DNA from: Escherichia phage Turkey5
Sequence record: PQ471516.1
Reading direction: 5' to 3' (one strand)
DNA length: 64,000 bases
A program made the translations under genes and the position numbers. The notes beneath the pieces are model-generated. The model was not told the origin of the DNA. It saw only the letters and a program-made list of their open reading frames with translations, and did not search any database. Shown here piece after piece: positions 6,620-19,003 of this stretch (within the stretch, counting starts at the first letter, position 1; the number at the start of each line of letters is the position of its first letter).

Positions 6620-6627
6620 CCACCAGC
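6620..6627 (-). other. Chi site (minus strand)
   Basis: CCACCAGC = reverse complement of GCTGGTGG; inverted partner of 6682. Confidence 0.9.
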
Positions 6628-6681
6628 ACCGCCTAGAAACGATTCTAACGCATTAAACTGATTATCCGATGCATTGCCCTA

Positions 6682-6689
6682 GCTGGTGG
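6682..6689 (+). other. Chi site GCTGGTGG
   Basis: exact octamer, intergenic. Confidence 0.9.
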
Positions 6690-6754
6690 CGTTAAGGCTG
6701 TAAGAACGCGATTGAGAGCGTTTAAAGTATTTTGCAAAAAGTAATAAAAAGTAC

Positions 6755-6813
6755 TTGCACGATTAAGAGATTAGCGTATAATGTTTTACATCGAGAGGGG
6801 GAAACGGTTCTCC
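6755..6813 (+). promoter_or_regulatory. early promoter + 5'UTR hairpin cassette
   Basis: TTGCAC 6755, TATAAT 6777, imperfect hairpin ~6797-6813. Confidence 0.7.
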
Positions 6814-6837
6814 TTCCAAATCAAAGGAATCAAAACA

Positions 6838-7065
6838 ATGGCTATTATCATTACTCGCGTATCTGGTACTACTGGCAACGAACAAGTAGTTGCAGTCATT
6901 ACCAACAAGGAAGGTGCGGAATTGCAAAATGCAATGAATACCTGGGCCGTTAATGAGTTCGGTCAGTGGGCAAGTGTAGCATACATTGAAACCTATCAAG
7001 TGCCGTCGATTAGTTTAACTGATTTGGGCGTTGAGCGTATCCTTTGCCTTGATGAATTAAATTAA
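6838..7065 (+). CDS. hypothetical protein (75 aa)
   Basis: AAAGGA RBS, ATG 6838; alternative-frame ORF 6732..6953 rejected. Confidence 0.75.
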   Translation: MAIIITRVSGTTGNEQVVAVITNKEGAELQNAMNTWAVNEFGQWASVAYIETYQVPSISLTDLGVERILCLDELN

Positions 7066-7073
7066 AAAAGTAC

Positions 7074-7134
7074 TTGCAAAGTAAATCGAATAAAGTATAA
7101 TACATTACATCAAGGGGAGAAAATGGTTCTCCCC
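7074..7134 (+). promoter_or_regulatory. early promoter + 5'UTR hairpin cassette
   Basis: TTGCAA 7074, TATAAT 7096, hairpin GGGGAGAAAATGGTTCTCCCC 7114-7134. Confidence 0.8.
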
Positions 7135-7151
7135 ACTACAAGGAAACTAAA

Positions 7152-7295
7152 ATGAAAACTTGTCAATGTGGTCAGAAATCTATTACGGGTTTAAAGCGGG
7201 GCGTTGCTCTTTGCCAGTACCATTATAATTTACAAGTATGGGGTAAAGAATGGGCCGACCAGGTGGAAGCAATCAAGAAAGCAAAAAGTAAGTAA
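7152..7295 (+). CDS. small Cys-containing protein (47 aa, below track cutoff)
   Basis: AGGA RBS 7 nt before ATG 7152; MKTCQCGQKS...ALCQYHYN; only ORF served by the cassette. Confidence 0.6.
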   Translation: MKTCQCGQKSITGLKRGVALCQYHYNLQVWGKEWADQVEAIKKAKSK

Positions 7296-7314
7296 AAATA
7301 TTATCACAGTGCTA

Positions 7315-7343
7315 TTGACATAGTTTGATAGTACTGGCATAAT
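7315..7343 (+). promoter_or_regulatory. class-II early promoter
   Basis: TTGACA 7315-17-CATAAT 7338 inside a repeated ~70-bp block. Confidence 0.75.
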
Positions 7344-7374
7344 AGATTTTATCAAGACAACTGAGGAAAATAAA

Positions 7375-7587
7375 ATGGCTATCATTACTAAAATCAAAGT
7401 AAACAAATCACTGGTTAAGCTGGAAGAAGTGAAAGCAGGTTATAAAGTATCGTGGTGCGGTATGTATCGGATGTTCGCAGATATTGATGAAGCGATCAAT
7501 TATTACAGCGACACGGTTAAAAACTTTGTTCGTGCTGATGTGGTTATGGCAGTGGTAACGCACAAAGCAGCGAAAGAAAGTAAGTAA
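7375..7587 (+). CDS. hypothetical protein (70 aa), paralog of 10513..10692
   Basis: GAGGA RBS; MAII.K start and DEA..xY pattern shared with 10513. Confidence 0.75.
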   Translation: MAIITKIKVNKSLVKLEEVKAGYKVSWCGMYRMFADIDEAINYYSDTVKNFVRADVVMAVVTHKAAKESK

Positions 7588-7606
7588 AAATATTATCACA
7601 GTACTA

Positions 7607-7635
7607 TTGACATAGTTTGATAGTACTGGCATAAT
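7607..7635 (+). promoter_or_regulatory. class-II early promoter
   Basis: TTGACA 7607-17-CATAAT 7630; near-identical repeat of 7285-7360. Confidence 0.75.
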
Positions 7636-7676
7636 AGATTTTATCAAGACAACATATTAATTTAAGGAATACAAAA

Positions 7677-8000
7677 ATGGCTAAAACTATCATTAACACC
7701 GTTTCCCTGGCTGCAATCCGTGCAATCAATGTTGACGGTAAACGTTGGACTGATTCATATGGCAATACTTATCATTCTTGTCATGTAAGCGTTGAACTGG
7801 ATAACGGTTTGAATGATCTGGCGGTTGAATCATTTACTTATGGCTATGAAGATGCATATCAACAAACGGCGTTAGATCTCTTAAAGGAATCAGTAGACGG
7901 GCTTAATACTGATGAAACCTCCCTTACTCGTTTGTGCAATGATCTTAATATCCCGTTGCATTGTACTGTACAGAATGTTAAACGCAAAAAAGATCTTTAA
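7677..8000 (+). CDS. hypothetical protein (107 aa), paralog of 14280..14603
   Basis: shares RWTDSxGNTYHSC.VS...FTYGY...VKRKKD(L/M) with 14280..14603. Confidence 0.8.
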   Translation: MAKTIINTVSLAAIRAINVDGKRWTDSYGNTYHSCHVSVELDNGLNDLAVESFTYGYEDAYQQTALDLLKESVDGLNTDETSLTRLCNDLNIPLHCTVQNVKRKKDL

Positions 8001-8005
8001 TTAGC

Positions 8006-8034
8006 TTTACTTTATGCAGATACTTTGATATAGT
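8006..8034 (+). promoter_or_regulatory. possible promoter overlapping an inverted repeat
   Basis: TTTACT 8006-17-TATAGT 8029; IR TGCAGATAC/GTGTCTGCA around it. Confidence 0.45.
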
Positions 8035-8080
8035 GTCTGCATAGGGGAAAGAAATTAAATTAACTTAAGAGGATCGTATA

Positions 8081-17410: not shown

Positions 17411-17598
17411 CAGTAGAAGAAGTTAAAAAAGTACTGGCAGTACTACGCTATCATAATCATTGTAAGGTGAAGAATGATCCTGATTATCTTGATTCATCCC
17501 TGGAGGAAGACACCTTAAACGCGATAAGCTATATGCAAACATTAGCAAAGCGTATGACCGAAAAGAATAGGCCGGACTATATAGGAAATAAAATTTAA
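17407..17598 (+). CDS. hypothetical protein (63 aa)
   Basis: ATGA overlap with 17138..17410. Confidence 0.7.
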   Translation: MTVEEVKKVLAVLRYHNHCKVKNDPDYLDSSLEEDTLNAISYMQTLAKRMTEKNRPDYIGNKI

Positions 17599-17605
17599 AA
17601 AGTAC

Positions 17606-17667
17606 TTGCATTGTAGTTAGATTAACGTATAATGTTTTATATCGAGAGGGGGAAATGGTTTCCCCTC
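17606..17667 (+). promoter_or_regulatory. early promoter + 5'UTR hairpin cassette
   Basis: TTGCAT 17606, TATAAT 17628, hairpin ~17645-17667. Confidence 0.75.
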
Positions 17668-17685
17668 AAGTCCAGGAGATACACC

Positions 17686-17949
17686 ATGAACACTATCGAA
17701 ATCACTATCAATGCACACGTATACGACAACGTAGTACTGCAAACTACTATGACCGCTAATGATACCAGTACTTTGCGGAATACTGTTATTAGTGCCGTAT
17801 GTGCTGCAATCGGTGATGTATCCCTGGAAAATGCAGAACATATCAACAACGGTTTCACTATGTGCAAGCGTGATAACGCAAAACATATCATCGTGGAAGG
17901 TTACGGCGGTGTAGAATTTAATGTTTATATGAAAAAAGTACTTGCATAA
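17686..17949 (+). CDS. hypothetical protein (87 aa)
   Basis: CAGGAGA RBS, ATG 17686; stop inside next promoter. Confidence 0.75.
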   Translation: MNTIEITINAHVYDNVVLQTTMTANDTSTLRNTVISAVCAAIGDVSLENAEHINNGFTMCKRDNAKHIIVEGYGGVEFNVYMKKVLA

Positions 17950-17998
17950 TAACTAAAACAAAGTATAATGTTTTGCATAGGGGGAGATATCCTCCCCC
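17942..17998 (+). promoter_or_regulatory. early promoter + 5'UTR hairpin cassette
   Basis: TTGCAT 17942, TATAAT 17964, hairpin GGGGGAG-ATATC-CTCCCCC 17980-17998. Confidence 0.8.
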
Positions 17999-18016
17999 AC
18001 TAAAAGGAGTAATAAA

Positions 18017-18241
18017 ATGGCTAACTTTGATGAACTGATGCGGGAAGTAGCTAACCTGGCAGAAGAGAAGAAATCATTCGATTCTATCTATAACACCGCT
18101 CACCGTGATTCAGTACTGGCATGTAACCAGGATCAAAAAGATGAACTAATCGCCACCTATCATGAAGCATGGAAGTACTACCGACAATGGGAGAAAGAAG
18201 AAAGTGAGTCTACCATTGACGGCCTCAATAATCTAATCTAA
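18017..18241 (+). CDS. hypothetical protein (74 aa)
   Basis: AAGGAG RBS. Confidence 0.8.
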   Translation: MANFDELMREVANLAEEKKSFDSIYNTAHRDSVLACNQDQKDELIATYHEAWKYYRQWEKEESESTIDGLNNLI

Positions 18242-18260
18242 AAGTTTTATTTCAGTACTA

Positions 18261-18289
18261 TTGACATAGCTTGATAGTACTGATGTAAT
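18261..18289 (+). promoter_or_regulatory. class-II early promoter (diverged copy)
   Basis: TTGACA 18261-17-TGTAAT 18284. Confidence 0.6.
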
Positions 18290-18317
18290 AACTTTACTAA
18301 CTACAAGGGGAAACATA

Positions 18318-18575
18318 ATGGAACAGTTCACACAATATCGGGTAAATCATCAAGCTATGGCCTACGTAGAAGACCATAAAACGTTACCAGTACTGCAACC
18401 AGTTAAAGGCCATATCTATCGTGCAATGTCGTGGTGTACGGCTCAGGATGGCTATAAAACCGTAGCCGTTGGTATGTATTGCGGTAATGGTGAATGGTTT
18501 GATCCAAATAATCCGGTAGCCATTGACAGTACTGAACAAATGAAATGGGCCGACTATATCGAGGATATCTCATAA
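18318..18575 (+). CDS. hypothetical protein (85 aa)
   Basis: AAGGGGA RBS. Confidence 0.8.
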   Translation: MEQFTQYRVNHQAMAYVEDHKTLPVLQPVKGHIYRAMSWCTAQDGYKTVAVGMYCGNGEWFDPNNPVAIDSTEQMKWADYIEDIS

Positions 18576-18581
18576 AACTAT

Positions 18582-18642
18582 TTGACAGTACTAACCAGTA
18601 ATGTATAATGTTTTACATAGAGCGGGGGAATAGTTCTCCCGC
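18582..18642 (+). promoter_or_regulatory. early promoter + 5'UTR hairpin cassette
   Basis: TTGACA 18582, TGTATAAT, hairpin 18622-18642. Confidence 0.8.
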
Positions 18643-18664
18643 CAATAGTTTGGAGTAAAACATT

Positions 18665-18865
18665 ATGTCTATCGCTATCGCCCTGGTTGAAGTACTGAAA
18701 GAAGCTAAAGCCAACCTTATCGATGTACAGATTAAGGAATTGCAAAACGGCTTAATCGGCTGTACTTGTACCGCTGGTGGAGCGGCAGACTATCGAGAAC
18801 ACGAATCACTCGAATCACTGGTTCGGTATCTTACCATGATCGTTGATGATTGGAGAATCATCTAA
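18665..18865 (+). CDS. hypothetical protein (66 aa)
   Basis: GGAG RBS; contains Chi at 18773. Confidence 0.75.
   Translation: MSIAIALVEVLKEAKANLIDVQIKELQNGLIGCTCTAGGAADYREHESLESLVRYLTMIVDDWRII
18773..18780 (+). other. Chi site GCTGGTGG
   Basis: exact octamer, in CDS. Confidence 0.9.
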
Positions 18866-18882
18866 CAAAAAAGAATAAAAAA

Positions 18883-18909
18883 AGGGATTGACTCAGGTCA
18901 GTCCCTTTG
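18883..18909 (+). terminator. hairpin terminator overlapping a -35
   Basis: AGGGATTGAC-TCAG-GTCAGTCCCT + TTT. Confidence 0.6.
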
Positions 18910-18960
18910 CTATTATATACGCATAGACAAAAACTAGCCCACAGGGTGCATAAGTGTATC
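18888..18960 (+). ncRNA. candidate ORF-less mini transcription unit (CCCA-NN-GGGTGC core)
   Basis: TTGACT 18888-17-TATTAT 18911; core TAGCCCACAGGGTGCATAAGTGTATC 18935-18960. Confidence 0.4.
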
Positions 18961-18995
18961 CAAAATATATAGTTAATAACGGTGAGTAACTATCT

Positions 18996-19003
18996 GCTGG
19001 TGG
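18996..19003 (+). other. Chi site GCTGGTGG
   Basis: exact octamer, intergenic. Confidence 0.9.

Follow-up and report, generated by a model that had tools for sequence, protein, structure and literature searches.

Plasmid and linear-DNA experiments have established that a Chi site (5'-GCTGGTGG-3') in the proper orientation close to a duplex end curbs degradation by RecBCD, so that DNA farther in is stabilised, and that a series of such sites strengthens the effect. Chi acts solely on RecBCD that approaches the octamer from its 3' side (PMC12315714; bioRxiv 10.1101/2021.07.08.451572). Phages P1, P7 and D6 have their Chi concentrated in or close to the terminal redundancy and require RecBCD to grow, probably for circularisation (bioRxiv 10.1101/2021.07.08.451572, Subramaniam & Smith). 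In LLS-type lambdoid phages, as many as 25 Chi on the top strand gather at the right end, oriented so as to be active there, and RecBCD enhances phage growth (Genome Res 2025, PMC12315714). Beyond the work on P1 and LLS, the papers that we searched describe no Chi array from a jumbo phage or from a fixed direct terminal repeat (DTR); a match to GCTGGTGG in a Citrobacter phage paper proved to be merely a ribosome-binding-region string. Here we describe nine Chi on the + strand and one on the − strand between positions 6620 and 19003 of a 64,000-nucleotide stretch of Escherichia phage Turkey5 (PQ471516.1), hereafter the window. We argue, with a probability of roughly 0.7, that they form a selected array of host RecBCD control signals in the phage's DTR. 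The argument draws on the positions of the sites, their enrichment, location in the DTR, orientation, conservation and recurrence, all of which we observe. Selection for terminal Chi, known from temperate P1 and lambdoid phages, would thereby extend to virulent jumbo phages of at least four genera.

A pattern search of both strands of the window finds 11 exact copies of GCTGGTGG, ten on the + strand (starting at 6682, 10957, 11466, 12416, 13402, 15787, 17195, 18773, 18996 and 61855) and one on the − strand (6620-6627). An earlier sequence-only reading of this DNA had listed the same sites, with every coordinate exact and none missed. Ten of the copies, each the exact enterobacterial octamer, fall within 6620-19003. 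Dinucleotide shuffles of the window (n=100, both strands) hold a mean of 0.48 Chi and a maximum of 2, and 0/100 reached 11. Within the DTR, the nine + strand sites compare with 0.11, 0.17, 0.16 and 0.44 expected under Markov orders 0-3, a 20-80x excess (Poisson P <= 1e-9). These expectations were taken from the DTR's own composition, computed on 1-20360 with the boundary afterwards refined to 20432, and they agree with the ~0.1 per 20 kb per strand estimated in the sequence-only reading; they rule out composition or Markov structure as the origin of the array.

At 92-96% identity, the window matches Asteriusvirus jumbo coliphages (the 121Q/PBECO4/G17 group), and judged by this similarity it derives from such a phage. 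All of the close relatives are E. coli or Salmonella phages, in line with the enteric host proposed from the Chi sites in the sequence-only reading; for the window itself the host is likewise taken from the 92-96% identity. Alignment to the relatives assigns window 1..20432 to the phage's ~21 kb DTR, predicted to occur at each end of the virion DNA. The first window position corresponds to position 1048 of fEgEco12, so that the window opens ~1 kb inside the left end of the DTR, and the right boundary, GGGTAACCT|TAGCGACTTCGA at window 20432, matches the DTR end of both fEgEco12 and vB_Ec-M-J. In fEgEco12 the DTR measures 20,993 bp, was found with PhageTerm and was confirmed by restriction digests; the vB_Ec-M-J record annotates a DTR of 21,525 bp over the same region, G17 has a terminal redundancy of ~20 kb as judged from coverage, and Sharanji has a DTR of 20,668 bp (PhageTerm). 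Fixed repeats of ~20-21 kb have thus been reported in several Asteriusvirus studies (PMC13070987, PMC11895373, PMC6563267). A left edge of the DTR at window ~2335, suggested by BLAST offsets to vB_Ec-M-J, was an error caused by indels and is refuted by direct alignment.

The repeat differs from its surroundings in composition and gene layout. Its GC content is 0.35-0.41, against 0.33-0.36 beyond, and drops from ~0.38 to ~0.34 on crossing the boundary, and its GC skew is positive. All of its ~50 genes lie on the + strand, and they are small and spaced, each with sigma-70-type promoters and hairpin terminators, whereas past the boundary genes are tightly packed and overlapping. The relatives annotate nearly all of the ~50 small proteins as hypothetical. 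Between 6000 and 20500 the + strand carries nine perfect 12/12 TTGACA-N16/17-TATAAT promoters, and 82 promoter-like sites occur where 49 are expected. Such a pure consensus set is consistent with immediate-early transcription by unmodified host RNA polymerase. The sequence-only reading had described the region as an early module; dense early-type promoters are consistent with that, but the region is better described as a ~21 kb DTR found at both ends.

Once the physical ends are placed by homology, nine of the ten DTR sites are oriented for activity on RecBCD entering at the right terminus. The + strand sites of the right repeat copy lie 1429, 1652, 3230, 4638, 7023, 8009, 8959, 9468 and 13743 bp inside the end. 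That + strand sites act only on RecBCD travelling right to left, as the sequence-only reading held, agrees with the published orientation rule. In the left copy, only the 6620 site and one at ~0.58 kb act against entry from the left. Active sites facing the right end number 9-12, the first of them 0.4-1.4 kb inside the terminus, compared with 2 facing the left end. At both termini the first correctly oriented Chi comes within ~0.5-1.5 kb, and the right end has ~5x more sites. With an assumed recognition probability of 0.2-0.4 per RecBCD encounter, only 1-11% of enzymes entering fEgEco12 from the right, where ten + sites face them, would cross the repeat unswitched, compared with 36-64% of those entering from the left.

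The second − strand Chi of the relatives, ~0.58 kb from the left terminus, lies just ahead of the window start. It belongs to an exact palindrome, CCACCAGC-N4-GCTGGTGG, a back-to-back Chi pair that forms an 8-bp hairpin (-16.3 kcal/mol). It occupies 578-597 and 588-607 in two Asteriusvirus records and 484-503 in fENko-Kae01, and it is kept in 35 Asteriusvirus-like records plus the distant fENko-Kae01. Its loop is flipped between fEgEco12 and vB_Ec-M-J (TTGT vs ACAA).

We drew the contrast with the rest of the genome in the relative EC22.5-2 (351,992 bp, assembled from eight pieces). Its 21.3 kb DTR holds nine + and two − Chi, while the 331 kb outside hold seven + and ten −, against order-3 expectations of 4.9 and 3.7. 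The DTR, 6% of the genome, therefore accounts for 11 of the 28 Chi and for 9 of the 16 on the + strand (P = 8e-8), so that the uniform genome-wide density named in the sequence-only reading as the outcome that would refute it is not what the genome has. The orientation bias is limited to the repeat as well. Non-coding Chi show the sharpest difference, with seven in 6.4 kb of DTR spacer and none in 27.6 kb of spacer elsewhere. As a separate observation, a group of − strand Chi is found at 333.8-347.3 kb of fEgEco12 and at 9277, 9535, 9790 and 23117 of EC22.5-2. These lie in Ala-Gly-Gly frame on the sense strand of tandem − strand paralogues just upstream of the right repeat, annotated as 'chromosome condensation regulator' or RCC1-like, and they are probably driven by the peptide motif of the paralogues' own repeat.

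Conservation within the genus and recurrence outside it carry different weight. The five Asteriusvirus genomes that we compared are ~93% identical, and every one of the ten sites except 11466 has its orthologue in fEgEco12, vB_Ec-M-J and EC22.5-2, as well as in G17 wherever that sequence covers the position; of background 8-mers, 51-59% are unchanged throughout the four genomes. More distant phages show the array anew. In the Klebsiella phage fENko-Kae01, at ~29% average nucleotide identity to fEgEco12, the 19,736 bp PhageTerm-mapped DTR holds 12 + and 2 − Chi, compared with 1 + and 1 − in the next 30 kb. In the Pectobacterium phage CBB (Mimasvirus), the annotated repeat of 22,456 bp holds 7 + and 2 −, compared with 2 + and 1 − in the next 27.5 kb. 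In the Klebsiella phage RaK2 (Alcyoneusvirus), 8 + and 1 − fall in a ~20 kb block and none in the next 17 kb; this block is the GC-elevated small-gene stretch equivalent to the DTR rather than a mapped repeat, and it was placed by tblastn with the DTR open reading frame (ORF) 16626-17051, which otherwise gave mostly Asteriusvirus matches. The array-bearing genera thus include phages of Klebsiella and Pectobacterium. Pooled over the three genera with mapped repeats, + and − Chi stand at 29:6 (p = 1e-4), and 21 of the 29 + sites lie in the terminus-proximal half (p = 0.02).

The positions of these sites are non-orthologous between genera. Only one Chi-bearing ORF of the window (17138-17410) has a cross-genus homologue that covers the site, reading TSAGGSF here and CLACGSF in CBB, where Ala-Cys-Gly replaces Ala-Gly-Gly and Chi is accordingly absent. 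Non-orthologous positions imply that the arrays are maintained by turnover and not by ancient conservation. An unbiased octamer screen of the repeats of the four genera returned two recurrent families, AGTACT-containing words and Chi. The minimum count of Chi was 7, while the next GC-rich word had a minimum of 3 and was Chi shifted by one base. Recurrence across genera is the strongest evidence for a selected array.

One might instead expect Chi to arise as a by-product of coding and composition, with Ala-Gly-Gly written in T-ending codons (GCT GGT GGN) on the G-rich sense strand of a GC-richer region. Of the window's five coding DTR sites, four are indeed in Ala-Gly-Gly frame, the DTR has a GC content of 0.38 vs 0.34 and a positive GC skew, and even outside the DTR Chi runs at ~2x the order-3 expectation, with 7 of 17 Ala-Gly-Gly there spelled as Chi. 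But five of the window's ten DTR sites lie between genes, Chi in non-coding DNA is confined to the DTR, and the DTR's own composition predicts just 0.11-0.44 sites. The spelling itself is also telling. Every Ala-Gly-Gly in DTR ORFs is written with GCTGGTGG, in Asteriusvirus (3/3), fENko-Kae01 (4/4) and CBB (4/4), hence 11 of 11 where ~15% is expected; codon usage predicts 0.4-0.7 Chi-spelled cases per genome (joint p ~2e-9). The tripeptide is, moreover, 3-4x commoner in DTR proteins, and where the CBB homologue lacks Chi it reads Ala-Cys-Gly. The spelling test and the non-coding sites together rule out an origin in codon usage, and we give the by-product explanation as a whole next to no weight. 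Chi tends to fill freely variable sequence, including the -35/-10 spacers of fENko-Kae01, hairpin stems and Ala-Gly-Gly codons, which is the pattern expected if the word itself is selected.

Another possibility is that the octamer hitch-hikes on an amplified promoter, terminator or 'mini unit' repeat and matches Chi incidentally. The DTR is rich in repeated promoter and terminator modules, Chi occurs in hairpins in three places (10957, the 6620/6682 pair and the left-end palindrome of the relatives), and several Chi of fENko-Kae01 lie in promoter spacers. Against this, the 24 nt around the nine sites have a pairwise identity of 26%, the random level, so that Chi stands alone as an octamer and a longer repeat enclosing it is ruled out. 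One-mismatch variants are not enriched in the region, where just two occur (9914 and 19337). Half of the sites, furthermore, are inside different, unrelated ORFs, and the exact host octamer recurs at non-orthologous positions in four genera. Hitch-hiking is therefore very improbable, scarcely more credible than the by-product explanation. One feature of the flanks does recur: the base after Chi is A (GCTGGTGGA) at 20 of 36 DTR sites over the four genera, which may indicate a preference in the 3' flanking context.

How does a selected array in this repeat compare with the described systems? As in P1, over-represented host Chi are concentrated at terminal direct repeats, and for P1 RecBCD/RecA recombination between the repeats after injection has been proposed. 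But P1, a temperate phage, uses headful packaging from a pac site, with a variable redundancy of 5-10 kb and a nearly random Chi orientation that serves both ends, whereas the present phage is virulent, a 350-kb myovirus whose ~21 kb repeats are fixed, with an array that is ~5:1 co-oriented toward a single terminus and a RecA-like recombinase of its own. The RecBCD dependence of P1 was shown experimentally, while that of Asteriusvirus is putative. The likeness to LLS phages is a right-end cluster that is active for entry there, at 20 active to 3 inactive sites in LLS and 9:1 here. LLS phages are ~45 kb temperate cos phages without terminal repeat, recombination module or anti-RecBCD gene; here, by contrast, the array does not extend beyond a terminal repeat, and the genome lacks lambdoid architecture. 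Classical Chi-protected DNA consisted of engineered substrates, whereas the present array is natural and kept across at least four phage genera.

T5 resembles the present phage in another way, as a virulent coliphage with a long fixed DTR (10.2 kb) that carries the earliest genes. Its repeat has two Chi, at 8127 and 8689, both on the + strand and facing the right end, and its genome-wide Chi density has been reported as about that of E. coli; together these indicate that T5 has no repeat-specific array. We had considered T5 as a second example of a terminal Chi array and dropped it, two sites in a repeat not being distinctive. Stepwise entry has been shown for T5, whose left repeat is, according to its record, the first part to enter the cell, and Asteriusvirus shares with it the long early-gene DTR without sequence similarity.

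T5 bears on a further explanation, that the array shields the early genes themselves, for instance while the left end enters stepwise as in T5, or when the DNA has broken internally. The sequence-only reading had suggested this kind of specific shielding. It would suit a repeat of ~50 small genes with consensus sigma-70 promoters, as expected of immediate-early genes, and the annotated first entry of the long T5 DTR. The orientation speaks against it: the + sites are inactive against RecBCD from the left terminus, and those of the left copy would act only on enzyme coming from an interior break. The array faces a right terminus 1.4-13.7 kb away and so would shield the whole genome to its left, not the early region in particular. 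The T5 DTR itself has two Chi, about the published genome-wide density, and early genes that are duplicated at both ends are those least in need of protection. We consider specific shielding of early genes unlikely.

Returning to a selected array of RecBCD control signals, we propose the following sequence of events. The linear virion DNA would bear the same repeat at each end, and RecBCD would load on a free duplex end. In Sharanji (Asteriusvirus) no phage nucleus forms and the DNA is spread through the cytoplasm, so that linear ends, if not capped by a protein, should be accessible to the enzyme, unless an early protein inactivates it. RecBCD entering at the right terminus would meet nine correctly oriented Chi 1.4-13.7 kb inside the end (ten, to 20.4 kb, in the relatives), and with recognition at 20-40% of encounters 89-99% of enzymes would have switched before leaving the repeat. 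Past Chi, as is established for RecBCD, the enzyme degrades the 3'-ended strand less and loads RecA onto it. Loss would then be confined to redundant DNA, with unique sequence spared, and the RecA-coated 3' tail would share homology with the opposite repeat or with those of sister molecules. Pairing of this tail would favour formation of a circle or concatemer and recombination-primed replication. The left terminus would be guarded more weakly, by two − strand Chi, at ~0.58 kb and 6620. We infer that RecBCD has access to the right end in vivo and that the phage gains protection together with repeat-by-repeat recombination. The authors of the fEgEco12 study suspected that the genome circularises via homologous recombination of its repeats; Chi goes unmentioned there.

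It is also possible that the same RecBCD switch is selected for another payoff, such as depriving CRISPR adaptation of the fragments that RecBCD would release from the injected end, or neutralising RecBCD in a way that offers inhibitor-sensing defences no protein to detect. Given a recombinase of the phage's own, repeat-by-repeat recombination would then be incidental. In E. coli, Chi sites delimit the DNA from which spacers are acquired, and certain retrons watch over RecBCD. A RecA-like recombinase and exonucleases are encoded by the phage itself, and no anti-RecBCD gene is reported in the annotations of the relatives that we examined, although no scan was aimed at such functions. The sequence offers nothing to separate a CRISPR- or inhibitor-related benefit from protection and recombination. 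On the other hand, the array is placed exactly in the redundant DNA, a location that in P1 has been accounted for by recombination. We regard a different payoff as improbable, if clearly less so than the three explanations weighed above.

Several points weigh against a selected array that works through RecBCD in the way proposed. Within-genus conservation of Chi is modest by itself (P = 0.01-0.04). The genome-wide contrast comes from a relative that is ~93% identical across the aligned DTR, the window's own genome being covered to 64 kb. All DTR genes lie on the + strand, so that right-facing Chi are confounded with the sense of transcription and coding, and the left end has just two active sites, an asymmetry for which the proposed sequence of events gives no reason. 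The phage encodes a RecA-like recombinase and exonucleases, and the annotation of Sharanji also lists a RecD-like helicase; in LLS phages, Chi abundance goes with the lack of a phage recombination module, a defining feature of class A that the present phage does not share. From terminase phylogeny alone, the phAPEC6 paper (PMC7247149) took packaging to be headful, with no fixed ends. This assumption conflicts with the directly mapped DTRs, and the mapped fixed repeats imply that many Asteriusvirus database records are collapsed and arbitrarily opened. The literature that we searched holds no experiment linking Asteriusvirus growth to RecBCD or RecA.

Taking the genera together, we tentatively suggest something broader, to which we would give somewhat less than even odds. 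The Rak2-like jumbo phages of Enterobacterales that form no nucleus (Asteriusvirus, the fENko-Kae01/Munch group, Mimasvirus and Alcyoneusvirus) may all keep a one-directional Chi 'bumper' in their ~20 kb repeats through turnover of positions, as a protein-free means of converting RecBCD at an exposed right terminus. The resulting RecA filament would join the repeats, and these virulent giants would be partly dependent on host RecBCD and RecA. If so, the asymmetry of the array (~10 active sites vs 2) would reveal which genome end is exposed to the cytoplasm. The right terminus would be exposed to RecBCD, degradation would stop inside the redundant 21 kb, and recombination between repeats would be stimulated by Chi. 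The array offers a testable handle on injection and on the start of replication in little-understood 350-kb phages. It would also be a clean natural example of selection on a DNA word itself, acting through promoter spacers, hairpin stems and codon choice. In practice, a co-oriented Chi array could mark terminal repeats and genome polarity in collapsed assemblies, and it could help to predict host range among bacteria that share this Chi.

The individual sites differ in their settings. Five of the ten in the DTR are intergenic (6620, 6682, 10957, 13402 and 18996), four are in Ala-Gly-Gly frame and one is in Leu-Val frame; the statement of the sequence-only reading that several are non-coding, with one in a terminator stem, is thus correct, the latter being 10957 in its 11-bp hairpin. 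The leftmost site (6620..6627, − strand, CCACCAGC on the + strand) is intergenic, with exact orthologues in fEgEco12, vB_Ec-M-J and EC22.5-2, and within the window it alone is oriented to act on RecBCD that has entered at the left terminus and travels rightward. Back-to-back with it is the intergenic + strand site at 6682..6689, and the two are able to pair in a 9-bp long-range stem. The intergenic + strand site at 10957-10964 forms the 3' arm of a terminator-like hairpin on the same strand (10942..10967; AGCCCACTGGT-TAAC-GCTGGTGGGCT, 11-bp stem; -20.6 kcal/mol, z = -3.45). This Chi is kept in 5/5 Asteriusvirus genomes, and the hairpin recurs at 19354 of fENko-Kae01 with compensatory changes in the stem. 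The least conserved site is 11466..11473 (+ strand), which encodes Ala-Gly-Gly in a small ORF with a TTG start at 11421 (g029 of fEgEco12); vB_Ec-M-J has GCTGATGG in its place, and EC22.5-2 and G17 carry a deletion there.

The next five + strand sites to the right are each kept in 5/5 Asteriusvirus genomes. These are 12416..12423, in the GCT GGT GGN (Ala-Gly-Gly) frame of ORF 12323-12511; 13402..13409, which is intergenic; 15787..15794, in ORF 15749-15991 in the frame xxG CTG GTG Gxx (Leu-Val); 17195..17202, Ala-Gly-Gly in ORF 17138-17410; and 18773..18780, Ala-Gly-Gly in ORF 18665-18865. The last DTR site, 18996..19003 (+ strand), is intergenic according to annotated relatives and lies 1,429 bp inside the right terminus, where it is the first active site that entering RecBCD meets. 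Outside the repeat, a lone + strand Chi at 61855-61862, in the Ala-Gly-Gly frame of ORF 61771-62913, is consistent with the low background density.

The repeat carries other recurrent words besides Chi. A hairpin with a 12-bp stem, AAAGGGATTGACTCNGGTCAGTCCCTTT, followed by GCTATTATAT, is present in four copies (9571-9598, 13314-13341, 16619-16646 and 18881-18908). With a TTGACT -35 box in the stem and a TATTAT -10 box in the tail, each copy forms a single cassette in which terminator and following promoter overlap. The palindromic hexamer AGTACT is strongly over-represented: it occurs at 6.4/kb in the repeat of the window and at 3.3/kb in the rest of the window; outside the DTR of EC22.5-2 it occurs at 2.35/kb, and a rough hand estimate from composition gives ~0.3/kb. 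Among its extended forms, CAGTACTG is found 29 times in window 1-20432, and AAAGTACT, AGTACTTG and CAGTACTG are the top recurrent octamers of the terminal repeats of all four genera. AGTACT often stands directly upstream of the -35 box (AAAAAGTACTTGCAA) and may be a regulator-binding site or a promoter element. A further motif, CCCACAGGGTGC, has 3-4 copies per terminal repeat in all four genera and is represented in the window around 13375-13390 (tagcccacagggtgcat).

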